A DNA stretch of 64,000 nucleotides from Actinomycetes bacterium (lineage in GTDB: Bacteria > Planctomycetota > Phycisphaerae > JAACET01). Every line of letters begins with the position of its first letter. Position 1 is the stretch's first letter. Location of the stretch: positions 1,263 to 65,262 of the forward strand of contig JAUXAG010000006.1 in the NCBI GenBank assembly GCA_030614915.1, given 5' to 3'. Position numbers and translations under genes: made by a program. This document shows positions 13,722 through 64,000 of the stretch, one piece after another. The notes below the pieces were generated by a model that saw nothing but the letters and a program-made list of their open reading frames with translations, did not search any database and was not told the origin of the DNA.

Positions 13722-13803
13722 AGTCAGCCAAGAAGGGGGTATAATAAGCGGGGCAAACTGCTTATGAGCTGGTGAGAATATTACAAGGTACAGAGGAAAA
13801 CGA

Positions 13804-14814: not shown

Positions 14815-14818
14815 GACG

Positions 14819-15337: not shown

Positions 15338-15375
15338 GAGCCGGCGAAGCGAGTGTTGAAAAGCGGGAACCATTT

Positions 15376-18039: not shown

Positions 18040-19191
18040 CTATCGGAGCATTATCTGACCACCGGTAACAGCAATGGCCTGGCCGGTCTCGTACTTCTGC
18101 TCGATCAGGTAGTACACTGCGTTAATGATGTCGGATACATCGCAGCCGCGTCCCATCGGCACCTTAGCTTCATAGGCCTTGCGAACGTCTTGGACGGTTT
18201 TGGCTCCGGGGACCTTGCCGGCTCGCAGGTATTGGGCGAACAGACCGTTTTGCGGATCAGACCACAGCGGGCCATCGAAAAAATTGCCCGGACAAATGGA
18301 GTTAACCTTGATCCCATCGGAAACCAATTCCAAGGCGAACGACTGAGTCAGTCCGATTCCGCCGAACTTGCTGCCAGCGTAGGCGCTGTTGCAGTTGGAA
18401 CCTACCAGGCCGCTTTTGGAGTTGATCTGGATGATATCAGAAATATAGTCCGGCTTGGCCAGATGTTGGACGGCCAGTATGGGAGCGGCCTTCTGCACAC
18501 ACAGGAAGTAGCCTTTGTAGTTCACGGCGGTGACGAGGTCAAAATCCTCTGTCGGTTGAGTTTTCACACTCTGGGCTTTCAGCACGCCGGCGTTGGATAT
18601 AAGAATGTCCAGTCCGCCGTATGCACGAACGGTCTGATCTATTGCCTTGCCGACAGACTCGCTGTCGGTAACGTCGATGGCCAGACCCTTGGCCCGCCCG
18701 GGGCCATGAATCTTGCACAGCTGCTCGGCCTCGCTGCGGGCACCGTGCTCATCAATGTCTGCCAAGACTACGTAAGCGCCTTGTTCAGCAAGGTCCTGGG
18801 CGATTCCCAGACCGATGCCTTGAGCTGCCCCGCTAACCAAAGCCACCATTGCCCCCACCCGCCCAGCTTGCATATAGTCTTCGACGACGCTAAAGAGCCC
18901 CACGTTCTTGACCCCAACAACTTGCACCGGCTCTGGGGCTGCTTCAATAGCCCCCGTCAGCCGTTCTACCACCTGCTCTGCTGATGCTTTAGCCGGTATC
19001 TCAACTGCTAGAGAACTGGGCGGATCGCTGGCCGACTCGCTGAAACGGACGAGACTGAGCTTATCGACCTGGGCCAAAAGTGCCCTCAGGGCCGGAGCTA
19101 CTATGTTTATCAAGCGGTTTTGCTCATCGACTGTCATGGTCTGCATCGCTCCTGTATTTGGGCTTATCGGTTTGGCAGTAGCCTTTAACAA
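18040..19191 (-). CDS. Short-chain dehydrogenase/reductase (SDR) family oxidoreductase with ~100-aa N-terminal extension
   Basis: Rossmann motif ALVSGAAQGIGLGIA. NAG motif ISNAG. Catalytic YAGSKFG (YxxxK). The extension MLKATAKPISPNT...VVEDYMQAG precedes the SDR core, so an internal start is possible. Confidence 0.8.
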   Translation of the reverse strand: MLKATAKPISPNTGAMQTMTVDEQNRLINIVAPALRALLAQVDKLSLVRFSESASDPPSSLAVEIPAKASAEQVVERLTGAIEAAPEPVQVVGVKNVGLFSVVEDYMQAGRVGAMVALVSGAAQGIGLGIAQDLAEQGAYVVLADIDEHGARSEAEQLCKIHGPGRAKGLAIDVTDSESVGKAIDQTVRAYGGLDILISNAGVLKAQSVKTQPTEDFDLVTAVNYKGYFLCVQKAAPILAVQHLAKPDYISDIIQINSKSGLVGSNCNSAYAGSKFGGIGLTQSFALELVSDGIKVNSICPGNFFDGPLWSDPQNGLFAQYLRAGKVPGAKTVQDVRKAYEAKVPMGRGCDVSDIINAVYYLIEQKYETGQAIAVTGGQIMLR

Positions 19192-19296
19192 CGGCTACAC
19201 CCAGCTTGACAAGGCCAGAGATTCGCGGTTCGGCTGTTTCTTTTGCCCACCATCATACCCGCTTCCGCAGGAATGATCCCTTGGGAGACATTCGGG

Positions 19297-20682
19297 CTAA
19301 AGGCCAACAGCTTCGATGATCTTGTCCAAATCATCGGGGACCACTACGGGGCGATTGGCAAGATTAGCTCGCTTCACACCCACCCGTTGATATTTCTCTA
19401 TCTGGCCGAGATTTACCTCGGTGTGGTAATCCACTGTTACATTCGGGTCCTTCAAGGCGTGTCCTGTCAGGATGCAGACCACCCGCTCGTTTTTGCCGAT
19501 GACCGCTTCGGCCCGTAACTTGCGTAGCCCGGCCACCGAGGCCGCCGAAGCCGGTTCACAGCCCAGGCCGCTGCGCCCGACCATGGCCTTGGCGTCCAGT
19601 ATTTCCTCATCTGTAACTGTGCGCACCAGGCCGCTACACACATCCAAGGCCCGGAGGCACTTGCGCAGGTTCACCGGCCGATTGATTTCAATAGCGCTGG
19701 CCAGAGTCTTGGCCGAGCGGCGCTCGCTGTCCATTTGCTCGAAGAATTTCTTCTCCAGTTCCGGGTCGCACCGCCCGTCGTTCCACTTCATTTTCTCCTG
19801 TTCCACCAGCCGGTAGAGAGTATCAGCCCCGGCGGCATTGATAATTGCCATCCGCGGCACCCGCTCGATGAGCTTGAGTTTTTGCAGTTCCATAAAGGCC
19901 TTGCCGAAGGCGCTGCTGTTGCCCAGGTTACCGCCGGGCACCACTATCCAGTCGGGCACCTGCCAGTTGAGACCTTCGAGCACCCGGTACATGATGGCCT
20001 TTTGCCCTTCCAGCCGGAAGGGATTGATCGAATTCATCATGTACAGGCCCAGCCGCTCGGCCACTTGCTGAACCCGCCGCATACATACGTCGAAATCCCC
20101 TTCGATCTGGATGGTTCTGGCGCCGTAATCCAGGGCCTGGGCAAGTTTGCCGTAAGCGATCTTGCCCGATCCGATAAAGGCCACCGCCTGCATCCCGGCC
20201 GCCGAGGCGAACATGGCCACCGCCGCCGAGGTATTGCCGGTCGAGGCGCAGGCTACGGTCTTGGCCCCCACCATGCGGGCATGGGTGAAGGCCCCAGCCA
20301 TGCCGTTATCCTTGAACGAGCCGCTGGGATTGAGTCCTTCGTATTGCAGAAATATGTTCGGCGGCTCGATATCCACGTAATCAGCCAGGGCCCGGGAGTT
20401 CTGCAAAATAGTTTGGCCCTCTCCCAGGCTCACCATATCCTGCTCCGGGGCGAACTTCAGCAGTTCCCTGAAACGCCAGACCCCCGAAAAGTTCAGCCGC
20501 TCATTGCGTTGGGCCCAGCGTCTGGCAAAGGCCTTCATTCGCCGGGGCACCGGGATGAGCTTCCATTGGTAGCTGATGTCCATCAGCCCTGTGCACTTGG
20601 GGCAGGCGAAGGTTTGATCCTGGATATCCACTCTTGCCCCGCACGTTGGATTGATGCATTCCTGCCAAGCCACTTCACTCAT
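19297..20682 (-). CDS. thrC: Threonine synthase (long form with N-terminal Cys4 zinc-ribbon)
   Basis: CINPTCG...CPKCTG N-terminus. PLP lysine motif GSFKDNGMAG. Overall conserved fold-type II PLP enzyme pattern. Confidence 0.9.
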   Translation of the reverse strand: MSEVAWQECINPTCGARVDIQDQTFACPKCTGLMDISYQWKLIPVPRRMKAFARRWAQRNERLNFSGVWRFRELLKFAPEQDMVSLGEGQTILQNSRALADYVDIEPPNIFLQYEGLNPSGSFKDNGMAGAFTHARMVGAKTVACASTGNTSAAVAMFASAAGMQAVAFIGSGKIAYGKLAQALDYGARTIQIEGDFDVCMRRVQQVAERLGLYMMNSINPFRLEGQKAIMYRVLEGLNWQVPDWIVVPGGNLGNSSAFGKAFMELQKLKLIERVPRMAIINAAGADTLYRLVEQEKMKWNDGRCDPELEKKFFEQMDSERRSAKTLASAIEINRPVNLRKCLRALDVCSGLVRTVTDEEILDAKAMVGRSGLGCEPASAASVAGLRKLRAEAVIGKNERVVCILTGHALKDPNVTVDYHTEVNLGQIEKYQRVGVKRANLANRPVVVPDDLDKIIEAVGL

Positions 20683-20745
20683 GATCTACCTCGCTCTGTT
20701 CAGGTTCTAGGCCTCAGGTCTGAGCCTCAGGGTCGAAGACAAGCC

Positions 20746-21663
20746 TCATGCCTCATTCTTAGATGCCTGTTGCAGAGTTTTCTTTTCCTGCCGACTCAAG
20801 CTGCCTAGGCCTTCTTCGTGGACTTTTTTGAGAATGCGGTCGATCTCGGTCTGCTGGGCACGTTGACGCTTCATTTTTCTTTCCCAGGCTCCCTTGCGAA
20901 TCTTGACCTGCACCCATTTACGCCCCGACGGCCCGACAGCCCCGCCGACCCTGCCCGGCCAACGGATAAGACCCTTGGCCTCCAGCCAGACCCACAATGC
21001 TCCCACGGCCAAGCCGCCCAGATGACAGGCGTCGGCTCCTTCTTGTGAGCCCAATATGTTGAGCAGATATATTGCGCCAATAATTATGGCCAGCGTACGG
21101 ATGCGAATAGGAAGGATGAAAAACAGTAAGATCGTTACCTGCGGTGCTCCTACCGCGCAGGCACCGACCAAACCTAGCACGGAGCCCGACGCACCGATCA
21201 TTAGCTTACTTGGAAAAACTCCGGCTGCTACGGTAATGGCATAGACTATTGCCCCCACTACTCCGAAAAGGCTATACAGAATGAAGAACTTCTTACCCCC
21301 CCAACGCTGCTCCAGCAAAGTCCCCAGAAAATATACCCACAGCATATTCCAAAAAATATGTCCCAGCCCACCATGCAGGTACTGATAGCTTATGAACCGC
21401 CATACTTGCCCTCTCAGTATTGCCCACTCGAGAACGAAACCTCCTGCGTATTCCGGCCAACCCAAGGCCAAATGGAGACCGGGTACGGGCACTAGAAATC
21501 CCAATGCCCTGCATAGGCGCTGGGCGACGAAGACGGCTACGTTGGCAATCAGGAGCTTCTTGACCATGGGTGTTAGCCGTGGCCACATGAAGCCCCCGGC
21601 CATCATCGGACCACCTCGGCCCTCGTAGCCGCTTTGGGCGTAATCCCTGTCTTGCCAGCCCAT
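20746..21663 (-). CDS. Rhomboid-family intramembrane serine protease
   Basis: GASGSVLGL (GxSG) and AHLGGLAVG (catalytic His) within a 6-TM core. Cytoplasmic Lys/Arg-rich C-terminal tail. Confidence 0.85.
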   Translation of the reverse strand: MGWQDRDYAQSGYEGRGGPMMAGGFMWPRLTPMVKKLLIANVAVFVAQRLCRALGFLVPVPGLHLALGWPEYAGGFVLEWAILRGQVWRFISYQYLHGGLGHIFWNMLWVYFLGTLLEQRWGGKKFFILYSLFGVVGAIVYAITVAAGVFPSKLMIGASGSVLGLVGACAVGAPQVTILLFFILPIRIRTLAIIIGAIYLLNILGSQEGADACHLGGLAVGALWVWLEAKGLIRWPGRVGGAVGPSGRKWVQVKIRKGAWERKMKRQRAQQTEIDRILKKVHEEGLGSLSRQEKKTLQQASKNEA

Positions 21664-22765
21664 ATCATTCCCCGTTCAGGCTCTTGGGTTTTCGAATTGC
21701 TGTGATTATAGGTGCTGAGTGAGCCAGCCGCAAGCTGGGTCTAAAGTGACCTTTGTAAGGCTATTATCACTGCTTTCTCAGCTATGGTCCGGCGGGAGGC
21801 CCCGGGCGGGGCGCAGATTTGCTCTGCGGACATTAACTACCCGTAATGTCCTGTAGTATAAGTCGCTACGAGAGGTCAGACACCTTTGTATTTTTATCCT
21901 TTTTACGGGGACCCTGACGGATGCTATGCGCCTGGGCCCAATACTTTTTGGAGCTGGACCCCATAAAAATATCGAGAATTACAGAGAATTTGTCTTGCAA
22001 AGTGGGTAAACTGGGCTTAGTATTTTAGAGAAGGGCTTGGTGTATCGAGCCGCTGATATCGGGCAGGTTGCTCTTGAAGATTTCAGTTTTGGGGATCGCT
22101 TTACAGGCGGTCACACAAAACGACAAGTACGGAGGAGGTATTTTCTTTGCTCTAACACGGGGACTTAGGGGGTAATTTCCGGGTTTTGTACATTGATAGA
22201 TAGAAGCGCCGTTGCGGTCTGCCGTTGTATTATGCTTACCTGCCGGTAGGCAAGGGCATTTCGACCGTCGGCGATATGATCTCCGGGCGCCGGATCCATC
22301 TGGCAACACCTTCCTGTCGGCCGTGCCCCCCCCACGGTCTGACATTGTTGCCTTTTTTCCGGCGCCCTTTTCTTATTCCAACCTCAGTATCCAGCCGGTC
22401 CTGGCTGGCCCTTGCCTCAGGTAGCATCCTTGGGAAACGACAGTTCCGAGAGGCACTACCCGTGAGTATCGGCATTTCTTCAGGCGTCGGCACCTGGTCT
22501 ACTTTTGGGACTTCTGCGGGACCATTTTGGGCAAAAAACACAACAGATACGAGGATTATCGGCCCCCTGCAAGAATTACGATAAATCTAATAAGTCTTTG
22601 TGGCAAATAAAAATAAGAAAATCTGTCAAAGGTCCATTTATCCCCGGACGATACAGTTAAGGGTAGCTCATTTTGCAGATTCTCTGGGGGTTTCCAGTTC
22701 TAGTCGCTATAATCTGGTGTCGGAGCGAACCCCTGGTGAATACCTGACTTTCAGAAAGTTCAGCA

Positions 22766-23383
22766 ATGGTCAATCACAGATATCTTGGTACTTCGGATAT
22801 AGCTCGGGTTTGCCAAGTCACCGCCGTTACCGTGGGCAATTGGATCCGTACCGGCAAACTCAAGGCCTCTCGTGTACCGGGGGGAAACTATCGTGTAACC
22901 ACGGCTGACTTGGCGCACTTCCTGCAGGACGCCGGCATGGTTGTCCCATCCGCGCTGATCAGCGAGCAGCCGCGGGTGCTGATTATCTGCGACGAGCCGG
23001 CCGCCACAGGGCGCTTCGGCAGCATCCTGGCTGATATCGGCGGGCGCTGGCATATCGATACTGCCTGCGACTGCTTGACCGCTGGGGCTAAGGTCGTCCA
23101 GATTGAGCCAGACCTGGTCATCCTGCGGCTGCCTATGGCGGGGATGGATCCGCAGGTTTGTGAGCAAATTTGTCAGACCTCAGCTTGGGCGCGTTGCAAA
23201 CTCCTGGTCATACTCACGACCGGCGAGCCGGCCGAGACGGCCGAAGCAAAACAAATTGGTGCTGACCGCTGTTTGGGCAAGGATTTCACCGCCAATGAGT
23301 TCCGCTCGGCCGTGCTGGAGTTGCTGTTCGAAGGTGCCCTGCCACCCGAAGATTTCCAAAGAACATCGCAGAAAGACCATTGA
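22766..23383 (+). CDS. Excisionase/MerR-type HTH (HTH_17) fused to atypical receiver-like domain lacking the phospho-acceptor Asp
   Basis: N-terminus LGTSDIARVCQVTAVTVGNWIRTGKLKASRVPGGNYRVTTADLAHFL. REC-like region ...RVLIICDEPAAT...DLVILRLPMAGMD, where R replaces the expected Asp. Paralog at 56535-57131. Confidence 0.65.
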   Translation: MVNHRYLGTSDIARVCQVTAVTVGNWIRTGKLKASRVPGGNYRVTTADLAHFLQDAGMVVPSALISEQPRVLIICDEPAATGRFGSILADIGGRWHIDTACDCLTAGAKVVQIEPDLVILRLPMAGMDPQVCEQICQTSAWARCKLLVILTTGEPAETAEAKQIGADRCLGKDFTANEFRSAVLELLFEGALPPEDFQRTSQKDH

Positions 23384-23398
23384 TCCCCCCGCCCAGGC

Positions 23399-23998
23399 TC
23401 ATTCACTTATGCCCAGACGCTTCCGCACGTGTCGCGGCATGTCTTGGGCCTTTACATTTAGCCACAACCCGCGCTTGTTTTTCCGGGCTTGATTTTCTAT
23501 CTGCCCGAAGCGAAAGTAGAACCGGTGCCGCCAACGGCCGTCCGCATAGGCGTGTCCGCTTCGCAGCAGCTCCTCGTTGAGCATCTTACCCGCGTCGGTG
23601 TATACAAATGCCAGCAGCCTGCCGAACTTGCCTCGGGTCTTTTCGCCCTCGAGCTCTATGCTAACCGTTCGAGAAGCGACCATCCTTTCGGTAAAGGTTG
23701 TAGCCTCCCGGCCGAAGTATGCCACTGGCTTGCCCGGAGCCTTGGTTTCGGGGGTATCCACTCCCCACAATCTCACTCGCGTATAGGACTGATTGGCATC
23801 TGGGGTATTCAGATCGATAGTGTCCCCGTCAATCACCCGGTACACCTGGAACTGCTTATTGTTGTATCTGTGAAAATCACCGCTTTGTGGGCTTTGTCGG
23901 TCGCGCCCAATCAGGGCCAGCACTACCAGCAGGCCCAGAAGCACAGCTAGAGCTACTGTCCTGCTCAGCCTGTTGGCCGAGGGCTTGAGCTTTGCCAT
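23399..23998 (-). CDS. Thermonuclease (SNase/staphylococcal nuclease homolog), secreted or membrane-anchored
   Basis: N-terminal hydrophobic anchor. VIDGDTI...RLWGVDTPE...Y......R...E SNase signature. Confidence 0.8.
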   Translation of the reverse strand: MAKLKPSANRLSRTVALAVLLGLLVVLALIGRDRQSPQSGDFHRYNNKQFQVYRVIDGDTIDLNTPDANQSYTRVRLWGVDTPETKAPGKPVAYFGREATTFTERMVASRTVSIELEGEKTRGKFGRLLAFVYTDAGKMLNEELLRSGHAYADGRWRHRFYFRFGQIENQARKNKRGLWLNVKAQDMPRHVRKRLGISE

Positions 23999-24028
23999 CA
24001 GAGCAGTCCGATTATTATGCTATCAAGA

Positions 24029-25264
24029 TCAAAGACCCTGCCGGGTCGGTGCAGATTCCAGATTGAAGGCCTTGTGTACGGCCCGCAAGGCCTGGGGCCC
24101 CTGGTCGCGACTGATCAAGCAGGAGAGCTTGATCTCGCTGGTAGTGATGGCATTGATGTTTATCTTGGCCTGGGCCAAGGCCCTGAACATGCTGTGGGCC
24201 ACACCAGTATGGCTTCGCATTCCTACGCCCACCGCTGAGACTTTAGCCAGTTCATTGTCGTAGGATATTTTACATCCCGGCCAATTTGCCTTTACCTCGG
24301 CCACCACTTTCTGAGCCGCCTTCAATTCCCCCGAATCCACCGTGAAGCTCAGCGTCGCACAGCCGCTTTCGTGCTCAGTTTGGATGATATCATCCACGAT
24401 GATGTTAGCCTTGGCTACCCGGGAGAAGATATCCGCTGCAATACCCGGCGTATTCGGCACGTGGTCCATGGTTATCTGAGCGACGTCCTTTTTCAGAGAC
24501 ACACCCGAAATGACAATTTCTTCCATGGTATCAGCCTCCTGGCAGATTTCGGTGCCCGGTTCATCAGTGGCGCTGGACCGGACGCGAATCAGCACATTAT
24601 ACTTTTTACCGAACTCTACGGCCCGGGAGTGCATTACGCCGGCGCCCAGACTGGCCATCTCGAGCATTTCGTCGTAGCTGATGCGATCGAGTTTGCGGGC
24701 CTCGGACACAATTCGCGGGTCGGCGGTGAAAACTCCCGGCACATCGGTAAAGATATCACAATAATCAGCTCGCAGCACAGCCGCTAGGGCTACGGCGGTG
24801 GTGTCTGAGCCGCCTCGGCCCAGAGTAGTGATATTTGCATTTTCGTCTACCCCTTGGAAGCCGGCTATAATTGCAATCTTCCCCTGGTCCAACTGCGAAG
24901 TGATCCGCTGGGCATTGATCCGCTGGATTCTGGCCTTGGTATGGGCGTTATCGGTTATCAGCCCGACCTGCCCTCCGGTGAAGCTGACCGCCTCATGGCC
25001 GGCCGCCTGGATTGCCATGGCCATCAGCGATATCGATATCTGTTCCCCAGTGCTCAGCAGTTGATCCATTTCCCGTTTGGAAGGATTATCGCTAATCTCG
25101 TAGGCCATTTGCTCCAGTTTATCTGTGGTTTTGCCCGGTGCCGAAACCACCACCACCACCGAGTTGCCTGCCAGCTTGGCGCTGATTGCCCGCTTGGCTG
25201 CCCGGTGTATTTTCTGGGCATCCGCAATGCTCGTACCGCCGAATTTCTGGACTACCAAACCCAT
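24029..25264 (-). CDS. lysC: Aspartate kinase with C-terminal ACT domains
   Basis: MGLVVQKFGGTSIADAQKI N-terminus. Conserved AAK fold motifs. Tandem ACT domains. Confidence 0.9.
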   Translation of the reverse strand: MGLVVQKFGGTSIADAQKIHRAAKRAISAKLAGNSVVVVVSAPGKTTDKLEQMAYEISDNPSKREMDQLLSTGEQISISLMAMAIQAAGHEAVSFTGGQVGLITDNAHTKARIQRINAQRITSQLDQGKIAIIAGFQGVDENANITTLGRGGSDTTAVALAAVLRADYCDIFTDVPGVFTADPRIVSEARKLDRISYDEMLEMASLGAGVMHSRAVEFGKKYNVLIRVRSSATDEPGTEICQEADTMEEIVISGVSLKKDVAQITMDHVPNTPGIAADIFSRVAKANIIVDDIIQTEHESGCATLSFTVDSGELKAAQKVVAEVKANWPGCKISYDNELAKVSAVGVGMRSHTGVAHSMFRALAQAKININAITTSEIKLSCLISRDQGPQALRAVHKAFNLESAPTRQGL

Positions 25265-25277
25265 AGCTTTTCCAACT

Positions 25278-25363
25278 AGGCTTGAGGCTTGAGACTTGAG
25301 GAAGAGCCCGTGGCCAGAGCTAGCTTTTTCTTCCTCGTCCCTCAGGCCTCACGCCTCAGGCCT
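25278..25363 (-). repeat. Intercistronic imperfect inverted repeat built from triplicated CTTGAGG / CCTCAGG heptamers (24-nt arms, ~38-nt spacer) between lysC and the apgM-like gene
   Basis: Left arm aggcttgaggcttgagacttgagg (25278-25301). Right arm cctcaggcctcacgcctcaggcct (25340-25363), whose reverse complement matches the left arm at 20 of 24 positions. The right arm overlaps the stop codon of the upstream gene. Confidence 0.5.
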
Positions 25364-26543
25364 TTAAAAAGTATTCCATCAGTTCCCAGCCACGCTCGAC
25401 ATGCAGGTCCGCCGCCTCGGCGTTGGCTTCGCTGAAGGCATCGGCCAGGACGGCGGTGATGTTCTCACCGGCCAGGGCGAAGGGCACAGCTTTTCCAATG
25501 TGTGTGCGCAGACGCACCGGGGTAGGATGATCCGGGCAGATCAGCATCCGCCAGTGCTTACCTTTGCGCAACTCCTCAAGTACCGGCCCAACGATATGTT
25601 TGTCAATGGCCTCCAGGGCGGCCAACTTGGCCTTGGCATCGCCGTTGTGGCCGGCCTCATCCGGGGCCTCGATGTGCACCACCACCAGGTCATAGTTCTT
25701 CAGGGCCGCAACAGCGGCTTGGCCTTTGGCCTGGTAATCCGTGTCCAGATAACCCGTAGCCCCTGGTACTTGGATGTTCTCCCATCCGGCCAGCCGGGCC
25801 AGGCCCTTGATCAAATCGGTGCCTGCCACCAGTCCCCCCCGAAGCCCGAATCGCTTGCTGAATGGTTCCAGTTCGCAGCGTCTGCCCTGACCCCACAGCC
25901 ATATCTGTGTCGCGGGGTTCTCGTTGAGTTGTCGCCGGACATCGTTGATCTCGTTCTTCTCGAACAGCTCAGCCGACTTGCTCATCATCTCTCGCAGGGC
26001 GGCGCTGCCTTTTCCCTTCGGCAAGTATTTTTGCACCGACTGATCCATAATATCGTGCGGCGCAACGGTCCGCAGCCTTTTAAAGGCCGCTTCCCGGAAC
26101 ACTACCAGGTGGCGATAGGAAACCCCTGGATAGAACTCTATGCTGTCGCTGGCCAGCTCTTCGGCGAGCAGGTTTATCAGGGCCCGGGCTTCCTGTGAAG
26201 AAATGTGTCCGGCCGAATAGTCGATCATCTTCCCGTCGATAATCGTGACCAGGTTCGCCCGCAACGCCCAGTCTTCTTCAGCCAGTTCGATACCTCGTCC
26301 CGCCGCTTCGATCGCTGCCCGGCCGGTGTAGTTGGCCTTGGGATCGTAGCCCATCAGGCTCATGATGGCTATGTCCGAGCCCGGGGGCATTGCCGCCGGT
26401 ACATGCTTGACCGTCCCGGTCCGACCGTGGCTGGCAACCCAGTCGATATTGGGCAGCCGGGCCGCCTCTAGCGGCGTACGGTTGCCGAGTTCACCGATCG
26501 GCTCGTCGGCCGCCCCGTCGGGTATTATTACCGTGTATCGCAC
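25356..26543 (-). CDS. Cofactor-independent phosphoglycerate mutase family protein (archaeal-type ApgM-like); candidate non-orthologous homoserine kinase given context
   Basis: MRYTVIIPDGAADEPI... N-terminus and metalloenzyme/PhosphMutase-type motifs. Sits between lysC and hom. Confidence 0.85.
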   Translation of the reverse strand: MRYTVIIPDGAADEPIGELGNRTPLEAARLPNIDWVASHGRTGTVKHVPAAMPPGSDIAIMSLMGYDPKANYTGRAAIEAAGRGIELAEEDWALRANLVTIIDGKMIDYSAGHISSQEARALINLLAEELASDSIEFYPGVSYRHLVVFREAAFKRLRTVAPHDIMDQSVQKYLPKGKGSAALREMMSKSAELFEKNEINDVRRQLNENPATQIWLWGQGRRCELEPFSKRFGLRGGLVAGTDLIKGLARLAGWENIQVPGATGYLDTDYQAKGQAAVAALKNYDLVVVHIEAPDEAGHNGDAKAKLAALEAIDKHIVGPVLEELRKGKHWRMLICPDHPTPVRLRTHIGKAVPFALAGENITAVLADAFSEANAEAADLHVERGWELMEYFLKA

Positions 26544-26578
26544 TTTACTCTTACCAGTTTAAGATCGAGCTTGAATAT

Positions 26579-27901
26579 TCAGGCGCTTTCTTCTGCCACC
26601 CGGATGCACACTGGAGGCTCGCTAACAACTTCCAGTTGAGCGATTTCCGTCAGGGCCTCTTGCACCGAGCCTTCCCGGGCCAAGTGGGTCATTATGATTA
26701 CAGGCACGGGCTTAGCCGGCTCGCTTTCGTGCTGCAGTATTGCCGAAAGACTGATGTCTTTTCTACCCAGCACCCCGGAGACCTTGGCCATCACTCCGGG
26801 TTCATCCAGAGCCGTGATCCGGATATAGTACCGCGATTCGATGTCTTCTATGGATACAATCGGTAATTTTCGCCCGGTCCATTCACTCAGCGACCGGCAT
26901 CTGCGGCTGTCCGGGCCCTGGGCAAGGGCTATGACGTCGGCTATTACCGCTGAGGCCGTGGGCATTCGGCCGGCCCCCATCCCGTAGTAAAGCGTCTCTC
27001 CGGTGGCATGCCCGTAAACGCTCACCGCATTATAGACTCCACCCACCTGGGCCAGCAGGCTGCCCCGCGGCAGGAAGGTCGGATGCACCCGCAGCGAAAT
27101 CCCTTCAGGATGGACCTCTCCTATGGCTAAGAGTTTCATCACGTAGCCGAGTTCTGCTGCAAAGGCCAGGTCCGTCTGCTCTATCCGGTCGATTCCTTCG
27201 ACGTATATATTGTCCAGACTGACTTGGGTTCCGAAGGCCAGCATAGCCAGGATGGCCAGCTTATGGGCCGAGTCCATCCCGTTAATGTCCAGCGTGGGGT
27301 CAGCCTCTGCGTACCCCGCCTCCTGAGCCTGAGACAGAGCACTGGAGAACGACTCTTGCTTGTCGGTCATATTGGTCAGGATGTAGTTGCAGGTCCCGTT
27401 AACGATTCCTTTTAGTCCGTTTATTCTGTTGGCCACCAGGCCGTCTTCCAGGGCCCCGATAAGCGGGATTCCTCCGGCACAACTGGCCTCGAAACGTATC
27501 TGCTTTCCCACGGACTGGGCCAATTTCAGCAGTTCCGCTCCATGGCTGGCCAGCAGGGCTTTATTGGCCGTAACCACGTCTTTACCCGCCTGGAGCAGTT
27601 TTTCCACCACCGCCCGAGCCCCATCCACCCCGCCGATCAGCTCAATGCCTATGGAGATGTCCTCGTCTTCGAGAATATCTTCCAGTCGGCTGGTCAGTAG
27701 AGCCGACTCTACAGCCACTTCTCTGGGCCGCTCCAGATCCACATCGCAGATACGCACCAGGCGCAGATGGAGGCCTGTTTTTGCCGTTGCCGGACTCCCC
27801 TCGTTGCTCAGTAGGGCTGCTACTCCCTGGCCTACCGTGCCGAAGCCGACCAGTCCCACCCCGATCTTTTTGGGCTTGTTTCTCACCGTAATCCTCCGCA
27901 T
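26579..27901 (-). CDS. hom: Homoserine dehydrogenase with C-terminal ACT domain
   Basis: NAD-binding VGLVGFGTVGQGV. Conserved catalytic region. C-terminal ACT domain. Confidence 0.9.
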   Translation of the reverse strand: MRRITVRNKPKKIGVGLVGFGTVGQGVAALLSNEGSPATAKTGLHLRLVRICDVDLERPREVAVESALLTSRLEDILEDEDISIGIELIGGVDGARAVVEKLLQAGKDVVTANKALLASHGAELLKLAQSVGKQIRFEASCAGGIPLIGALEDGLVANRINGLKGIVNGTCNYILTNMTDKQESFSSALSQAQEAGYAEADPTLDINGMDSAHKLAILAMLAFGTQVSLDNIYVEGIDRIEQTDLAFAAELGYVMKLLAIGEVHPEGISLRVHPTFLPRGSLLAQVGGVYNAVSVYGHATGETLYYGMGAGRMPTASAVIADVIALAQGPDSRRCRSLSEWTGRKLPIVSIEDIESRYYIRITALDEPGVMAKVSGVLGRKDISLSAILQHESEPAKPVPVIIMTHLAREGSVQEALTEIAQLEVVSEPPVCIRVAEESA

Positions 27902-28081
27902 TGCGGGGCGCAGATGCCGACACTGTATAGAGTTACCTTGCTAAGGTCAAGCCAATTAAGAAATGTGTAAGGCTAAGCCACTATAACAAAACCTGACGCA
28001 CCCGCAAAACCGGATATAGCAAATCGGAAAAACCCCTCTGAAGTGTCGGGACCGAAACCGTAGCCTTGAACCGCCTCAAGC

Positions 28082-28738
28082 CTAATTCCGCAGGGCCCGT
28101 TTGTATGTTGCGTATGGGAAATACCGTCCCGGACACTTGGTGCTCTTGAAATCACGATGGAAATAAACCCCTGACGGGGGCAAATGGGTACAGGCCAGCA
28201 ACCCTTTCGTTAGATAAATCAGGGACTTCATCTGGGCGCGAGACGGCCGAGTGTACTCGAAGTTGCCCACCAGACATATACCTATACCATGTTTGTTGTA
28301 TTCGTTGCTGTCGTCAGGAGAAACGCGGCAATGAGCGCCGTGTTTTTGCTGACGCCACCTGGACCCAACCTCGATTTGTCCGTCAGCCGTATCTGTGCCG
28401 TTGCCGATAACGAAGTGATAGCCCATCTCGTCCATTCCGTTGTTTCTGTGTGCTCGGTCGAATCTTCTGGCGCTGCCTTCTTGCGTGGCACTGTGGTGGA
28501 CGATGATGTACTTCCAGCGATTTGACAGGTTTGCTACTGTCCAGGGCCCCCGTGAAGGTCGAGTCGCTTGGGAACGGTTTCTCGACTGGCCGGGCCTATA
28601 CCCTAGTGTTTCGTCAGTTTCCCTGAAGACCGGATCCAGCGGGGGGTCCACCGTCGTTGTCCGCCGGGGCCCGCAGCCCACCAAGACCGGAGCCATTATG
28701 CTCATTACGAACATCACTAAGGGCTTGTGTTTCACCAA
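28082..28738 (-). CDS. N-acetylmuramoyl-L-alanine amidase (Amidase_2/PGRP, AmpD-like) lipoprotein
   Basis: Lipoprotein signal ...APVLVGC. IIVHHSAT...YHFVIGNG...H..C...GIGICLVGNF motifs. Confidence 0.8.
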   Translation of the reverse strand: MVKHKPLVMFVMSIMAPVLVGCGPRRTTTVDPPLDPVFRETDETLGYRPGQSRNRSQATRPSRGPWTVANLSNRWKYIIVHHSATQEGSARRFDRAHRNNGMDEMGYHFVIGNGTDTADGQIEVGSRWRQQKHGAHCRVSPDDSNEYNKHGIGICLVGNFEYTRPSRAQMKSLIYLTKGLLACTHLPPSGVYFHRDFKSTKCPGRYFPYATYKRALRN

Positions 28739-58849: not shown

Positions 58850-59422
58850 TCAATAATTCTCGCACCACAGCTCAAAGTATTTCTGCTCGTGATCGCACAC
58901 CGGGCAGCGAGCCGGGGCTTCTGTAGCCTCTAACACGTGGCCGCAATTACGACACTTCCAATAAACCTTTCCGTCCTTCTTGAAGACGCTGCCTGCGGCT
59001 ACATTGGCCGCCAGCTTGTTGTAGCGGTGTTCGTGGTAGGCTTCCACCTTAGCCACTTGCCGGAAGGTGTTGGCAATCTCCGTGAACCCTTCCTTTTGGG
59101 CCACGTCGCCCGCATTGGGGTAGAGCATGGTAGTCTCCAGGTGCTCACCAGCCGCGGCGGCCTTGAGGTTTTCAAGGGTCTTACCTATCACCCCCGCGGG
59201 ATACTCAGCGGTGATCTGCACATCACCACCTTGAAGATACTTGAAAAACAGCTCACCATGTTCCTTCTCGTTGGCAGCTGTCTCCTCGAAGATCCCCGCA
59301 ATCTGCTCGTAGCCTTCTTTGCGAGCCCGGCCGGCGAAAAACGTATAGCGGTTGCGGGCCTGACTCTCACCGGCAAAAGAGGCCAAAAGATTGTGTTCGG
59401 TTTTGCTTCCTTTCAGTTCCAT
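58850..59422 (-). CDS. Rubrerythrin
   Basis: Di-iron ferritin-like motifs (E..EH pairs). C-terminal rubredoxin CxxC...CPVC. Confidence 0.9.
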   Translation of the reverse strand: MELKGSKTEHNLLASFAGESQARNRYTFFAGRARKEGYEQIAGIFEETAANEKEHGELFFKYLQGGDVQITAEYPAGVIGKTLENLKAAAAGEHLETTMLYPNAGDVAQKEGFTEIANTFRQVAKVEAYHEHRYNKLAANVAAGSVFKKDGKVYWKCRNCGHVLEATEAPARCPVCDHEQKYFELWCENY

Positions 59423-59592
59423 TGTACCTGCTCCTTATTGCAAGAACCCATGTTTACCAGTGGATGCCGGGATCGACTTGGTCCGGCTCTTAGCCATTCG
59501 AGGTTCAAGTCGGATTCAAGCTGAAACCTTCCCGACAGTTGTTTTATCCTAGGCTCGGATCCTTCAAAGTCAAGCATGGGCATGCAAATAAC

Positions 59593-59739
59593 CCACTCGT
59601 TTATTGAAATCCGCTGCCCAGAGCCATAAGGGTTGCTATATAAGCCTTACTTCGATATCCGGAGGATGGGCACTCGTTTATTGAACTTCGCTGCCCAAAA
59701 CCGTAATGGTTACTATATAAGCATTATTTCTATATCCGG
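59593..59739 (+). repeat. Tandem 77-bp direct duplication (2 units, ~85% identity) upstream of the large repeat-protein gene, each unit carrying an ECF-promoter-like motif
   Basis: Unit 1 59593-59662: ccactcgtttattgaaatccgctgcccagagccataagggttgctatataagcc... Unit 2 59670-59739: gcactcgtttattgaacttcgctgcccaaaaccgtaatggttactatataagca... Unit 2 has TGAAC-N15-CGTA. Confidence 0.7.
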
Positions 59740-59850
59740 CCCGGCAAGAAATACTTGGCCAAACCGGGAACCAAATGGGTATCCTGAGCGTCAGTTAGAA
59801 TGGGGACGGTGCAACGTAGCAGTTCATTTTTTCATGGGAGGACCGTAACG

Positions 59851-62800
59851 ATGAAACGCGTAAGAAAATCACTTATGGCGATTGTCCTAGCCGGAGTGGT
59901 CTGTTTAGCCCTGTTTGTCAGCCTTTGGCTGATCGCTAGCAGTGTAGATGACAAGGACAAGGACCGTGGCTGGGTAACAAAATGGCATGGGAAGGAAACG
60001 GAGACCGTTAGTATCGCTGACATGGCAGGTGGCAGTATTGGTGTCGGCCTTGTCAAAGAAGAAAACGGCGTTGTCGAGATTGACATATATGATACTTACT
60101 ACGACGCCTACGAGTGCAGAATTATTGCCATAAGCAAGTGGCGGGGAAAGACTTATACTGGTAAGCTAACAAGTGAAATAAAACCTGATAAGGGGGCAAG
60201 GTTTAATAAGGCAAAATTTGAAGATATAAGCCTTAAGAAAATCAAAGAGTTTAGGTTTCAAATTAGGCCGCAAAGCGACCGCCCGACGCAGCCTGGTATT
60301 GCCTGGGGGCAACCTGTCGGAGGTGTCCAACTAGGCATCGATTTTGATCTTGGTGATCGGCAGTATCGTACTGGGGAATTGGTCACCTTCAAAGTCTACG
60401 TTCGCAATACCGGGGACAAAGAGGTCAAGTTCATACACTATGTACCGGTGGGCGATCCGGCTCGGGAGAGAGTGTACCTCTTAGCGTGGTCTCCCAGCAT
60501 CACAGATGTCACGGGTAAGCGTTTGCCTCTTTTTGACCCTCTGCGGAACTTTCATGCTCAGCGACGTCAGCTAAGGCTGCCGCCCGGCACGACAAGCCTT
60601 GTTGGGATTGTGTCTCTGCAACTCACCTCGCGTCTAGACGAGCGTCCAGACGAGAAATCGAGCGATCCACATATCTATCTTGAGCCCGGCCAATATCGGG
60701 TGAGCCAAACTTATCGGTTTGATGAGGCACCCGAGGCCACATGGCACGGCGAGTTAACCACTGGAGAACTGAGACTATCCGTACAATATGAGCAGCCCGC
60801 CACGCAGCCGGGGGAAGAATGGGGTAGGCCGGTCCAAGGCGTGCGATCCCGCCTGCACGCCGCGAAACCTATCTGGAAGGTCGGTGAAATTCCGGCCTTA
60901 ATCCTGGAGGTCCAGAATCAGAGCGAAATGCCATGGGCTGTTCGTCCACCTGAGGCCGAGGGAAGGCCGCAGGTCCAAGTTGACGGAGTGTGGTACGAGC
61001 GGACGAGGTCGGAGTTCAGCGGGTACAGGAGGGGTATGGTTACGCGCGTTCAGCCCGGCGGAACGTCCCAGGAGATCAACCTAGTGCTCAACAACGCCTG
61101 GCGTTCGCGCAAGGACGGTCAGCGTTTGAGCCTATTCCCCGGCAAACACCTGATCCGGGCGACGTTTAAGGCAGATCAGTTTCCTCCGGGCGAAGACGCT
61201 GGCAAGTCGCCTATTCTAATAACAGGTGCGGACCAAGTACAAGTGGTGAGCAACCCGCTCGAGATCGAAATCCTCGCGGACGGTTGGGACCCCACTCAGG
61301 CCATTCTGGCCATCAACCACTGGGATGGGCTGCGCAGACTGCTTTCCGAAGTGGACCCGGAACGATTGCAGCAGCGATATGCCCAGATGGTTACTCATGA
61401 CAACGTGCTGAAAAATGCCCTCCAGGGTCTTCGCCACACCAGTTGGTATGAGACACATTCTCGAACAGGCCCAAACATTCTTGAGGAACTGCGTAGGGTT
61501 ATCCAAGTCCGTCCGGGTCCGAGAACAGGTCTTCTCACTATCACCGTCACCGGGTCGGACAAGGACGAACTTGCCGAAATCGCCAACGTCATTGCCCAGG
61601 CGGCGGTGGACAATGCCGTAGTTCCAGACGTCCCTGAGTTTCGCCAGGAGATAGAGCGCCTGCAGCAAGAACTGAAGACTCTTGAAACTAGGGTTAAATC
61701 TGCTGAGGACAGCGACCGGAAGGCAGCAAAGGAACAGATTTGTGAGCTTAGAATCCAACTGCTGCCCCTCATGCTGTTTCTCCATAGGCGTCCATTTAGC
61801 ATTCGGCTGCCAGCGGCGCCTCATCTAGCTAACCCAACTTCCATCTCGCTTGAGCATGCGCAGTCCGCTAGCGCGATGAGCAATCCCGTTGACATCGAAA
61901 TCCAGCCCGCCACGCAGTCGGAGTCGAATTGGCTCAGGCGTATCAAAAAGCCGGAAGATCGAGGCACCCTCCAGGACATTTATGAACAAATCAGACAGCC
62001 CCAGAGGCGTAGCAAGGTGGATGAACTCTGGGTAGTTCCAGGCGGACCCCATATCCTTGAATTCCACAGAGAAGGTCGTCTCGATCAATGGCTCGACGCC
62101 CTGGCGATCAAGAAACTGAAGGGTTTCTCCAGCGAAGACGACGTTTGGCTGCTGTTTCGCAGCAAGCAGTTGAACGACAACGATCGCATGTGGATTGAGC
62201 GTATCGAGAAAAAGGCAGACCAGATTGTCGTGTTAACACACCGGGCCCTCTGGCGAGGCGAATATAAGAAAAATGCAACCTGGTATCCGATATTCGGGGT
62301 CAATCTTGGCAAGCTGCCCGCCGGGAACTATCGAGCGAACTGGACAATCCTGCCGTATCATTTCACTGAGTTCGACGCGAAGGGTTGGCCTAGGGGCGCA
62401 AAGTTGACCGAAGAGAAGCCCACAGAGCTGAACGCGGCGTTCACTGTGGAACCGTCACCCGGAGCGGCCGCGCAGGCGGACGAAGAGTGGGGCAAGCCCG
62501 TCGAGGGCGTGCAAGTAAGGTTGCGAGCCGACAAGAAGGTTTGGAAGGCAGGTGAATTTCCAATTGTCAAGGCCGACGTTCGCAATACAGGACGCCGGGA
62601 TCTCTATTTACCATATTGCTACTTCCAAGCCGAGGTCGAAGTAGATGGCAGTTTGTATCGACACACTGGTCCTTCAAATATTCTTAGGCCCGACCATGGT
62701 CCATACGTCAAGCATCGTGAAGATATAGAAATTTATCTTTATCTGCGTTGTTGGACAGCTGTTAATAATCTTCGTCAGGAGCTTCGACTCAAACCGGGTC

Positions 62801-63417
62801 GGAATATGATCCGAGTTGCCTTCTACGCTGAGCCGGATAATGGTCAGCGCATCCGCGTTGTCAGCAACCCCGTCGAGATCGAAATCCAACCCGCTACGCA
62901 GCCGGCGGAAGAGAAGGACAAGTTAGTTTGGGGGGTTGTTGGCGATGGTATCCAATGTGCCGTTCGCCCTGTGAAGCCATCATTTGCACCCAACGAAGAC
63001 ATTGTTGCGGATGTTATGTATCAGAATGTATCGAACGATACGATTACAGTGTGTGTCTACCCTGACCCTTATTACACTTGGCTGCATTTGTACGTAAGAG
63101 ACCCGGTGAACGGTATGATAGTGATGGTCGGACAGCATGCAAACGGGATTCGCCGCCCCTTAAGACTGTCGGATTTCGTAAGACTTCGGCCAGGCCAGAC
63201 GGCTTCATTTCGCCAAGTTATAGCTCACAGTAAGAAGAGCCAGCCTGAGCCCGGCAGCTACTTTTTGCAGGCTGAGATCAACAAGATCAACCGGATGGAC
63301 GTACACCTTCTCGGGCTTGAAGAGTTTTGCAAGACGAATGGTATCCCCAAGCCCTGGTGCAGGGGGATTGAAAGCGGCAAGACCCCTGTAATGATCGCCA
63401 CGCAGCCGCCGGAATAA
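59851..63417 (+). CDS. Large membrane-anchored repeat protein (1188 aa): N-terminal TM, four ~150-aa beta-rich modules joined by (E/Q)PATQP linkers, central Wzz/PCP-like segment + coiled coil + second hydrophobic helix
   Basis: Start MKRVRK with GGAGG RBS 8 nt upstream. Modules begin PTQPGIAWGQPVGGVQLGI / ATQPGEEWGRPVQGVRSRLHA / AAQADEEWGKPVEGVQVRLRA / ATQPAEEKDKLVWGVVGDGIQCAV and end VVSNP(L/V)(E/D)IEI. Central ...LLTITVTGSDKDELAEIANVIAQAAVDNAVVPDVPEFRQEIERLQQELKTLE resembles the chain-length-determinant fold. Confidence 0.8.
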   Translation: MKRVRKSLMAIVLAGVVCLALFVSLWLIASSVDDKDKDRGWVTKWHGKETETVSIADMAGGSIGVGLVKEENGVVEIDIYDTYYDAYECRIIAISKWRGKTYTGKLTSEIKPDKGARFNKAKFEDISLKKIKEFRFQIRPQSDRPTQPGIAWGQPVGGVQLGIDFDLGDRQYRTGELVTFKVYVRNTGDKEVKFIHYVPVGDPARERVYLLAWSPSITDVTGKRLPLFDPLRNFHAQRRQLRLPPGTTSLVGIVSLQLTSRLDERPDEKSSDPHIYLEPGQYRVSQTYRFDEAPEATWHGELTTGELRLSVQYEQPATQPGEEWGRPVQGVRSRLHAAKPIWKVGEIPALILEVQNQSEMPWAVRPPEAEGRPQVQVDGVWYERTRSEFSGYRRGMVTRVQPGGTSQEINLVLNNAWRSRKDGQRLSLFPGKHLIRATFKADQFPPGEDAGKSPILITGADQVQVVSNPLEIEILADGWDPTQAILAINHWDGLRRLLSEVDPERLQQRYAQMVTHDNVLKNALQGLRHTSWYETHSRTGPNILEELRRVIQVRPGPRTGLLTITVTGSDKDELAEIANVIAQAAVDNAVVPDVPEFRQEIERLQQELKTLETRVKSAEDSDRKAAKEQICELRIQLLPLMLFLHRRPFSIRLPAAPHLANPTSISLEHAQSASAMSNPVDIEIQPATQSESNWLRRIKKPEDRGTLQDIYEQIRQPQRRSKVDELWVVPGGPHILEFHREGRLDQWLDALAIKKLKGFSSEDDVWLLFRSKQLNDNDRMWIERIEKKADQIVVLTHRALWRGEYKKNATWYPIFGVNLGKLPAGNYRANWTILPYHFTEFDAKGWPRGAKLTEEKPTELNAAFTVEPSPGAAAQADEEWGKPVEGVQVRLRADKKVWKAGEFPIVKADVRNTGRRDLYLPYCYFQAEVEVDGSLYRHTGPSNILRPDHGPYVKHREDIEIYLYLRCWTAVNNLRQELRLKPGRNMIRVAFYAEPDNGQRIRVVSNPVEIEIQPATQPAEEKDKLVWGVVGDGIQCAVRPVKPSFAPNEDIVADVMYQNVSNDTITVCVYPDPYYTWLHLYVRDPVNGMIVMVGQHANGIRRPLRLSDFVRLRPGQTASFRQVIAHSKKSQPEPGSYFLQAEINKINRMDVHLLGLEEFCKTNGIPKPWCRGIESGKTPVMIATQPPE

Positions 63418-63567
63418 ATCTGCGGATAAAACAGATTTTTTCTGAACTTTTTGTGTTCGAGGCGCCACATAAGAATAGATTCAGGGCTATTTGTCCGGAT
63501 CGAATTAGCGGATGGATGAGTTATCGAGCCGATCGAACGGTTATACCAGGAGCAAGGCCCGGCCATA

Positions 63568-63990
63568 TTGGGATACCTCCGACGCCTTGTTGGAGACTGC
63601 CAATTGGCCCAGGACCTCTTGCAGGAAACATTCATCCAGGCCATCCGATCCAAAGCTAAGCTCGCCGACGTGTCTTCCCCCCGTGCCTGGCTATTTGCTG
63701 TAGCCCGAAATATTGCCATGAACACCATTCGCCGCAGCCCACCGCTTGTTTCATTGCCGGCGAACCTTTCGCAAGATTGTCCCCAGCCGGACCCTAGAAT
63801 CGAACGAATGCGACAAGCCATAACCAAATTGCCGATTGCGCAACAGGAAACGCTCGAACTCAGACTAACTCAGGAGCTTTCTTATCAGGAAATCGCGACC
63901 GTGCTGGAGATTCCCCTCGGCACGGTCCGCTCGCGGCTGCATAATGCCGTGGGCCGCTTGCGCCAAGTTATGCAAAAGGCAGGCGAGTAA
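63568..63990 (+). CDS. ECF (sigma-70 family, group IV) RNA polymerase sigma factor; N-terminal boundary anomalous
   Basis: Region 2 ...LLQETFIQAIRS...AWLFAVARN. Region 4 HTH ...LSYQEIATVLEIPLGTVRSRLHNA. In-frame sigma-like residues (IEPIERLYQEQGPAI) continue upstream of the first canonical start (TTG 63568) back to a TGA. Confidence 0.75.
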   Translation: MGYLRRLVGDCQLAQDLLQETFIQAIRSKAKLADVSSPRAWLFAVARNIAMNTIRRSPPLVSLPANLSQDCPQPDPRIERMRQAITKLPIAQQETLELRLTQELSYQEIATVLEIPLGTVRSRLHNAVGRLRQVMQKAGE

Positions 63991-64000
63991 ATGTCCCAGA

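Follow-up and report, generated by a model that had tools for sequence, protein, structure and literature searches.

Planctomycetota encode many oversized BlaR1/M56 proteins as well as many extracytoplasmic function (ECF) sigma factors without assigned signals. The locus described here lies in a stretch of 64,000 nucleotides (nt) of contig JAUXAG010000006.1 (positions 1,263 to 65,262), which we call the window, and consists of a gene for a protein of 1188 amino acids (aa) at 59851-63417 on the plus strand, hereafter the big protein, and an ECF sigma factor gene 3′ of it. Hallmarks of ECF systems are AAC in the −35 box, CGT in the −10 box and positive autoregulation (PMC8103513). An earlier reading of the letters alone, here called the original prediction, had proposed a modular protein with a Wzz-like core that is transcribed with the sigma gene as one autoregulated operon. 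On balance we lean towards an account in which the big protein would be anchored in the membrane, lie mostly outside the cytoplasm, be a mosaic of cassettes akin to the ectodomains of BlaR1 proteins, come probably from a member of the Phycisphaerae, and be expressed as a unit of its own from one or more candidate ECF promoters.

Protein layout and module families

The coding sequence begins at 59851, behind a Shine-Dalgarno sequence (GGGAGG, 59837-59842). An alternative ATG at 59800 would give a protein of 1205 aa; it is not conserved in the closest relative (locus L009), which also has a 1-nt insertion or deletion there, so that 59851 is the better start. The protein consists of an N-terminal membrane helix, an N domain, four modules of about 150 aa (M1 to M4), a helical middle segment and a domain X, and its best homologue in an exhaustive HMMER scan was found at E = 6e-131. 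The predicted order of two modules, a core, an unrelated segment and two further modules was borne out by BLAST and hhalign comparisons. Residues ~9-29 (59875-59937) form the sole 19-residue window at transmembrane hydropathy (Kyte-Doolittle 2.81; next highest values 1.02 and 1.12), in agreement with the N-terminal transmembrane segment that had been noted. A second hydrophobic helix, previously placed at about residues 636-645, reached a hydropathy of 1.0 at most, which is below transmembrane level. The N-terminal helix may be a signal anchor or a signal peptide that is cleaved. It is preceded by eight residues, MKRVRKSL, and this tail together with the positive-inside rule indicates that the remaining ~1160 residues should be extracytoplasmic, a placement that we make with moderate confidence. 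In the arrangement that we propose, a single N-terminal anchor with a positively charged cytoplasmic tail of 8 residues would carry a chain of autonomous cassettes.

The modules lie at 60286-60804 (M1, residues 146-318), 60805-61284 (M2, 319-478), 62476-62904 (M3, 876-1018) and 62905-63414 (M4, 1019-1188). Whole-protein self-BLAST gave the diagonal alone, and the repeats were delimited by BLAST of segments against the masked remainder. We found that M2 (319-474) and M3 (875-1012) are 33% identical (E = 9e-17), so that the internal repeats that the original prediction had wished to see in a self-alignment are significant. M1 gave weak matches, one to the opening 40 residues of M3 (E = 9e-6) and one to M2, at 22% identity over 156 columns (E = 6e-3); M4 gave motif-level matches only. 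Profiles built from family alignments of database relatives were then compared with hhalign. The M1-type profile aligned with type A, the subfamily of M2 and M3, over its full length (probability 98.2%, E = 4e-14) and with the M4-type profile at a probability of 98.6% (E = 7.5e-16); type A and M4-type aligned over their first 52 columns (97.2%). The N domain (residues 30-145) and X (690-875) were unrelated in hhalign to the modules and to each other. These profile relationships indicate that the four modules are three subfamilies of one beta-sandwich superfamily.

The superfamily pattern can be written as WG-x4-G-[VL]-Q ... RN-G ... DG-WY ... PG-H-R ... SNPVEIEI, with linkers rich in P, T and Q between the modules. 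The opening motif EWGxPVxGVxxRL and the closing motif VSNPxEIEI-QPATQP, which had been ascribed to each module, are present in M2 and M3 and absent from M1 and M4, where just WG..G.Q and TQP are retained. In the type A alignment, conservation of 90% or more is seen at about 20 positions. Many of these are polar (W, G, R, N, D, H, S), a hint that the module has a functional site and is more than a spacer.

No Pfam or NCBIfam family matched the big protein above threshold. A segment-wise Pfam scan at E≤10 likewise returned nothing above threshold, the hints being BsuPI in M4 (16-19 bits, cut-off 22.9) and coiled-coil noise, and for M1, the N domain and X no Pfam match was seen at E≤10 except PhoR in X (E = 0.086). 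None of the named Ig-like families BsuPI, CARDB, Big, FnIII and CarboxypepD_reg reached its Pfam gathering score. The AlphaFold model of M3, made with a 44-sequence alignment, is all-beta with nine strands (predicted local distance difference test (pLDDT) 88.9, predicted template modelling score (pTM) 0.83). A Foldseek comparison of this model with the PDB gave no match at E≤1e-3. Probabilities rose to 0.9-0.99 for several sandwich domains at template modelling (TM) scores of ≤0.44, and the sandwiches concerned were generic: TRAP subunits, Spo0M, the FnIII-like domain of a GH3 enzyme, BsuPI, ApaG and the MG domain of alpha-2-macroglobulin. The view that the module is not a named domain was thus upheld in Pfam, NCBIfam and the PDB.

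Domain X (61918-62475, ~185 aa) corresponds to the unrelated segment of ~180 aa in the original prediction and proved to be a separate conserved family. In an AlphaFold model of residues 466-880 it is mainly beta with two short helices, at a pLDDT of 85-98; no Pfam or PDB match was found despite this confident model. X was also considered as a relative of the type A modules. MAFFT had stacked NLGKLPAGxYxxxW onto LxLxPGKHxxRV, hhalign gave the relationship a probability of just 2.4%, and the resemblance is probably superficial. The combined MAFFT alignment (M2, middle segment and X with fragments), in which type A modules were mis-stacked onto X, was discarded.

The middle segment (61285-61851, residues 479-667) contains helices, a short beta-alpha motif and a helical hairpin at 595-645. 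Its description as a Wzz-like core leads to the view that the big protein is a component of the polysaccharide co-polymerase (PCP) type (Wzz, Wzc, KpsE), in which the middle segment would oligomerise in the service of chain-length control or surface-polymer export and the modules would be accessory. Several matches point in this direction. All PDB sequence matches of the whole protein were to Wzc (residues ~211-298 against query 544-625, E = 0.3-1), and a two-sequence profile of the big protein and its homologue P0006 improved the Wzc match to E = 0.025, still sub-threshold. The five best PDB matches to the segment profile were Wzc as well, with the same 74 residues in each, and a strand-helix-helix motif of ~75 residues (555-628) aligns with Wzc 225-298. 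In Foldseek the top matches were mostly WzzE, KpsE, Wzc and FepE (E = 0.06-0.5, TM score ≤0.40, none significant; KpsE at probability 0.91 and TM score 0.39), NCBIfam returned Wzc and EpsF far below their cut-offs (12.8 bits against 1068 and 10.8 against 423), and another homologue, P0001, has glycosyltransferase neighbours.

However, every one of these matches falls short of significance, and Wzz (PF02706) and GNVR (PF13807) gave no match to the middle segment even at E≤10. The single transmembrane helix is ~450 residues away, the helices of the hairpin are just ~25 residues each, and model confidence is low outside the hairpin (pLDDT 42-75, against 84-94 for 595-645). Among the ORFs that flank the big gene, with translations read by eye, no Wzx-, Wzy- or Wza-type gene is seen. 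The segment is also rare: among the 153 mapped proteins that our part counts cover it occurs in one, P0006, which shares it together with M2 at 58% identity. A PCP-type component is thus very improbable. In our reading the middle segment is not a Wzz family member but a local strand-helix-hairpin motif of PCP-like kind, which may serve in oligomerisation.

Kinship with BlaR1/M56 proteins and cassette assembly

The exhaustive HMMER scan covered 1.84 billion cluster representatives and returned 1020 relatives of the big protein at E≤1e-3, 436 at ≤1e-10 and 78 at ≤1e-30. Word-index searches were near-empty (three matches for the full protein, one for the type A profile and none for the middle segment), and no close relative of the whole gene was found in genome and metagenome scans. 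Look-ups by exact sequence, for the big protein with either candidate start and for the neighbouring rubrerythrin-like ORF described below, returned nothing. M3 was present in 97 of the mapped proteins, M2 in 19, the M1-type in 39, the M4-type in 26, X in 24 and the N domain in 4. The type A profile, to which both M2 and M3 belong, found 202 full copies in 99 of the 153. The relatives are up to 6083 aa long, with as many as ten matched stretches.

Many of these relatives are BlaR1/M56 proteins. Peptidase_M56 (BlaR1) was detected in 14 of the 23 long homologues, and the others carry HEAT, CarboxypepD_reg, LRR, secretin or ExbD domains; the modules of the long homologues are covered by no Pfam family. 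An HExxHxRRxD zinc motif lies near position 190-290 in 34 of the 89 matches of at least 700 aa, and it was N-terminal to the modules wherever both were mapped. Furthermore, a BlaI/Penicillinase_R gene is directly upstream in four loci (L004, L005, L006 and L013), and domain X is 37-38% identical to its counterparts in BlaI-linked BlaR1/M56 proteins. The relatives bear source names such as 'M56 family metallopeptidase', 'HEAT repeat domain-containing protein', 'Leucine-rich repeat (LRR) protein' and 'hypothetical protein', and where an organism is given it is assigned to Phycisphaerae, Planctomycetia or Planctomycetota. Because its cassettes are the usual blocks of the extracytoplasmic C-terminal parts of BlaR1/M56 proteins, the big protein may be regarded as an 'ectodomain-only' relative of planctomycetal BlaR1/M56 sensors. 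Lacking both a protease and a cytoplasmic domain, it would most likely be a ligand-binding or scaffolding envelope protein rather than a signal transducer.

Within the window the module families were not found outside the big gene. The open reading frame (ORF) at 6394-10137, called BlaR1-like in the original prediction and thought to share a lineage-specific linker with the big protein, was considered as kin and rejected: it contains none of the module families, and the similarity comes down to the pentapeptide PATQP, which occurs in it once (nt 9073).

Two homologous loci illustrate the range of contexts. In L013, a BlaI (Penicillinase_R) gene overlaps by its stop codon with the start of a 6083-aa BlaR1/M56 protein (9615-28252), which has at least eight superfamily modules as well as CarboxypepD_reg and SecDF-head-like regions. 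P0001 (728 aa, Phycisphaerae; L001, 1-12432), with M1-like and type A modules, is encoded among glycosyltransferase, radical SAM/SPASM and transketolase-like genes, a context that differs from the BlaI/BlaR1 loci and from this window.

When the fetched loci were compared with the window by blastn, the big gene resolved into blocks with different relatives. The 5′ untranslated region (UTR) and N domain (59736-60268) are 93% identical in nt to L009, where the gene ends after the N domain. The N domain is matched at 89% (59967-60293) by L011/L012, which encode a 155-aa protein of a transmembrane helix and N domain followed by a Ni_insertion gene, and at 84% (59967-60276) by P0002, a 1174-aa protein with other domains. 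M1 (60342-60810) is 80% identical to part of P0001, M2 with the middle segment (60793-61686) is 74% identical to P0006, a protein of 391 aa, and M3 (62467-62900) is 94% identical to L010, which encodes a 181-aa one-module protein with a lipobox (AIGC). These copies of the N domain (59938-60285), a rare family, stand alone or are fused differently, in L002/3, L009 and L011/12, at 84-93% nt identity. Cassette blocks at 74-94% nt identity are thus found in proteins of different architecture, and the block ends fall on module borders. The GC content changes with the cassettes: it is 0.44-0.49 over ~59400-60450 (N domain), 0.55-0.61 over M1-M2 and 0.47-0.52 over M3-M4 (62550-63300), which confirms the lower GC previously noted at the start of the gene, and these steps agree with the nt-identity blocks to different relatives.

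The junctions between cassettes are encoded by direct repeats of 26-43 nt at 77-88% identity. One further copy, at 61852-61926, encodes the last strand and linker of a type A module (AMSNPVDIEIQPATQS) without a module body. Residues 668-689 are 59% identical to 996-1017 (E = 6e-5, BLAST) and match positions 126-146 of the type A hidden Markov model (HMM; independent E value 0.013), and the DNA repeat extends over 43 nt at 86%. We infer that this orphan copy is a recombination scar. The blocks, as compared in nt, indicate that the gene was assembled recently from cassettes. In the mechanism that we propose, whole cassettes would have been joined at a conserved junction-coding DNA repeat (SNPVEIEIQPATQP), which left the orphan copy behind.

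L009, L010 and L012 stem from the BAEC19-1 metagenomes, and two of the matching loci deserve separate mention. In L009 the frame at 329-759 has an in-frame TGA at codon 99 and ends directly after the N domain (FQFQIKR, then the stop codon); the N domain there is a short stand-alone gene, possibly a decaying one. In L010 the one-module gene (1659-2204) follows an unrelated ORF of 531 aa, and its product carries the lipobox FWAIGCGS and one type A module 94% identical to M3, indicating that modules also exist as one-domain lipoproteins.

A more far-reaching explanation is that the modules and X are exchangeable ligand-recognition cassettes in a planctomycetal repertoire for sensing at the envelope, swapped through recombination at the SNPVEIEIQPATQP-coding junction among BlaR1/M56 proteins, small lipoproteins and ectodomain-only proteins, and that the present array was captured by an ECF sigma factor via the duplicated promoter element described below. 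Although we consider it unlikely, cassette swapping of this kind would, if true, be a mechanism that diversifies what these bacteria sense.

The neighbouring sigma gene and candidate promoters

The sigma reading frame (63520-63990, plus strand) has regions 2 and 4 only (Sigma70_r2, E = 4e-11; Sigma70_r4_2, E = 1e-13; TIGR02937, 74.6 bits against a cut-off of 42.9), in agreement with the ECF sigma gene that had been recognized there in the orientation of the big gene. The frame opens ~100 nt past the stop codon of the big gene, and its first TTG, at 63568, is 150 nt past it. A region-2-like sequence, VIEPIERLYQEQGPAIL, spans the 16 codons upstream of this TTG, back to the stop at 63517-63519, and looks like region 2.1. 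An ATG at 63512 (ATGGATGA) is one base out of the sigma frame, and one extra base after ATGGATGA would restore an N-terminus MD(E/D)VIEPIERLYQEQ (MD(E/D)VIEP...). The lack of a canonical start could stem from an error of 1 nt in the assembly, from the use of a non-canonical start codon or from genuine damage to the gene. The ATG of another ORF follows directly after the sigma stop codon (63991-64000, plus strand) and is cut by the window end. Anti-sigma genes usually lie directly after the sigma gene, and by its position this ORF is possibly one.

The big protein itself might be thought to serve the neighbouring sigma factor as an anti-sigma factor or as a co-sensor in the membrane, given that its gene adjoins the sigma gene and that it is a single-pass protein with a large extracytoplasmic part. 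However, a cytoplasmic tail of 8 residues leaves no room for an anti-sigma domain (~80 residues in class I), no Pfam anti-sigma match was found, and the gene is upstream of the sigma gene, whose usual anti-sigma position is taken by the other ORF. This reading is thus close to refuted by anatomy, and we give it hardly any weight.

Three ECF-like sites were recognized on the plus strand. A distal candidate promoter, TGAACTT-N13-CGTA, is at 59682-59705 in the second unit of a tandem duplication upstream of the big gene; a proximal one, GGAAC-N17-CGTC, is at 59767-59792, 59 nt before the start codon; and a sigma-proximal one, TGAACTT-N13-CGCC, is at 63443-63466. The motif TGAACTT-N13-CG, which the distal and sigma-proximal sites have in common, occurs three times in the 64 kb (59682, 63443 and, on the minus strand, 20495), and beyond the 7-mer no similarity was detected between the units and the region upstream of the sigma gene. 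By first-order Markov simulation, the probability that the two upstream regions share NGAAC-Nx-CG[TC] with the same N and spacing is 3-6.5e-4 (post hoc). The proximal site is the only match to GGAAC-N16-18-CGTC on either strand of the window; in the simulations, GGAAC-N17-CGTC fell within the final 150 nt with a probability of ~8e-4 (post hoc). By its letters it is the better canonical ECF motif of the two sites before the big gene. L009 carries it unchanged, inside the 5′ block conserved with that relative, and the unit-2 site is outside this block. On the plus strand, the sequence ahead of the big gene gave no sigma-70-like site.

The tandem duplication of 77 bp seen in the original prediction was recovered by Tandem Repeats Finder at 59594-59739 with period 77, 1.9 copies and 85% identity. 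Unit 1 (59594-59670, core 59594-59662) and unit 2 (59671-59747, core 59671-59739), both on the plus strand, share a core of 69 nt at 86%, and unit 1 holds the degraded promoter-like copy that had been described (TGAAATC...CATA). The 77-nt unit has no copy elsewhere in the window and none in viral contigs. The units were also tried as an RNA element and rejected, with no Rfam match and no structure signal (z-score +0.6). Homology to L009 starts at 59736, the 3′ edge of unit 2, and everything further upstream is unrelated, which places the duplicated units outside the sole upstream block common to a relative. A near-repeat of 10 nt, AGCATGGGCA / AGGATGGGCA, is found at 59573-59582, 11 nt upstream of unit 1, and at 59663-59672, across the unit 1/unit 2 junction; it is consistent with microhomology at the duplication junction. 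On the other side of the units lies a minus-strand ORF (58850-59422), divergent from the big gene, which from its translation read by eye we take to be rubrerythrin-like; among the flanking ORFs there is also one that, read in the same way, is presumably a KsgA-type methyltransferase. A sigma-70-like site, TTGACT-16-TAGGAT (59573 to 59546, minus strand), faces the rubrerythrin-like ORF, 21 nt from unit 1. The 77-bp units could instead be part of the control region of this gene.

Over the stop codon of the big gene we found a hairpin with a U tract (63411-63443, plus strand), a candidate intrinsic terminator. It consists of an 11-nt inverted repeat, 91% complementary, with −11.5 kcal/mol and a z-score of −1.36, and was not called in a terminator scan. 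The promoter-like site at 63443 directly follows it. Taken together, the weak hairpin and this site point to two separate transcription units, in place of the single ECF-autoregulated operon of the original prediction, in which transcription starts ~10 nt after the CGTA of unit 2 and runs through the big gene into the sigma gene. Consistent with one operon are the same orientation of the genes, a gap of just ~100-150 nt, the presence of TGAAC-N15-CGTA in unit 2, a hairpin weak enough that read-through is possible, and the fact that many ECF sigma factors are autoregulated (PMC8103513). On the other hand, the sigma gene has its own promoter-like site right after the hairpin, the unit-2 site is not part of the block that the closest relative conserves, a 5′ UTR of ~140 nt would result and a canonical motif sits nearer the gene, a target gene ahead of its sigma gene is an unusual order, and the sigma start is disrupted. 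We thus regard a single operon as unlikely.

We propose that the big gene would be a separate unit, and not the first gene of an operon, that it may be transcribed from one or both of GGAAC-N17-CGTC (59767) and TGAACTT-N13-CGTA (unit 2), and that the big protein would belong to the regulon of the neighbouring sigma factor. Membership in this regulon is suggested by the architecture that the unit-2 site shares with the site before the sigma gene. Transcription from one or both ECF-type promoters under this sigma factor, separately from the sigma gene, is a tentative proposal, plausible but somewhat short of probable.

Several observations weigh against our reading of the locus. The ECF-like element seen in unit 2 by the original prediction does recur before the sigma gene as TGAACTT-N13-CG, but the bare consensus GAAC-N14-18-CGTA is not enriched in the window (8 found, 5.1 ± 2 expected). 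The promoter-motif statistics were all framed after the sites had been seen. Comparative support for the promoters comes from a single 93%-identical relative; since this figure holds for the whole block, an identical proximal motif there is no surprise. The sigma-proximal site departs from the consensus, with a spacer of 15 and CGCC as −10, and all three ECF-like sites are plausible candidate promoters whose activity is predicted. Ahead of TTG 63568 the sigma frame lacks any canonical start codon, and the gene may be defective. Among the homologues with readable context none has an ECF sigma neighbour, four of them being BlaR1/M56 genes beside BlaI, and the adjacency of the sigma gene is locus-specific. 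Finally, the role suggested for the modules would imply ligands or partners that are so far proposed, and the confidence of the middle-segment model is low.

Some of these points are shared by another explanation, in which chance has put the sigma gene beside the big gene and given rise to the ECF-like motifs, the big gene is transcribed by a housekeeping sigma factor, and the 77-bp repeats are a rubrerythrin promoter region or a neutral duplication. It is favoured by the lack of enrichment, the post hoc tests and the absence of an ECF neighbour in all homologues examined, and also by the sigma-70-like rubrerythrin site that abuts unit 1 and by the fact that the units and the region upstream of the sigma gene share no similarity of any length. 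Yet it would require two independent motif events, each with P<1e-3, on the correct strand and at sensible distances, and ahead of the gene the plus strand yielded no sigma-70-like site. We consider coincidence rather doubtful.

Comparison with known systems

The anatomy given in the original prediction is largely right, its Wzz-like core and shared linker were over-read, and its ECF idea survives in modified form. What the analysis adds is that much of the extracytoplasmic part of planctomycetal BlaR1/M56 proteins is made of one unnamed beta-sandwich superfamily and of X. By sequence, the superfamily with the WG signature and domain X are two uncharted domain families that are now delimited, and being confidently modelled they offer well-bounded units that can be named, expressed and tested for ligands. 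The nt identity of cassettes across architectures is a clean example of modular gene assembly in progress, and the three ECF-like sites lead to a testable regulon hypothesis. Current concepts are unchanged by these results, and the advance in annotation is useful but incremental.

Among described systems, BlaR1/MecR1 proteins of the M56 type with BlaI are close to the big protein, in the form of the planctomycetal giants of 1200-6000 aa. They share the type A, M1-type and M4-type modules and X, all of them C-terminal to the M56 domain. The big protein, in contrast, has no M56 domain (no PF05569 match) and no multi-pass region, and is preceded by a single N-terminal helix; no BlaI is seen among the flanking ORFs, whose translations were read by eye, and an ECF sigma gene flanks it instead. 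PCP proteins (Wzz, FepE, Wzc and KpsE) resemble it in the ~75-residue motif (555-628, against Wzc 225-298) and a predicted helical hairpin, and they provide the top structural matches. The differences are that the matches are non-significant, that the hairpin of the big protein is much shorter, that it has neither a second transmembrane helix nor a Wzz/GNVR match, and that its locus lacks a polysaccharide gene context.

As in ECF units of the sigma-E or sigma-W type, the sigma factor here has regions 2 and 4, AAC/CGT-like sites precede both genes, and an ORF begins right after the sigma stop codon. Unlike in such units, the sigma-proximal site combines a 15-nt spacer with CGCC, the sigma frame is without a canonical start, and the promoters are candidates. 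The modules are similar to Ig-like sandwiches (BsuPI, ApaG/DUF525, the MG domain of alpha-2-macroglobulin and the FnIII-like domain of GH3 enzymes) in being all-beta with ~9 strands and in their tandem arrangement with P/T-rich linkers, and differ from these named families in having no match at E≤1e-3, TM scores of ≤0.44 and no Pfam membership. Together, these comparisons indicate that the locus is not a new kind of system: it encodes a modular beta-sandwich envelope protein, kin to BlaR1-type ectodomains, beside an ECF sigma gene.

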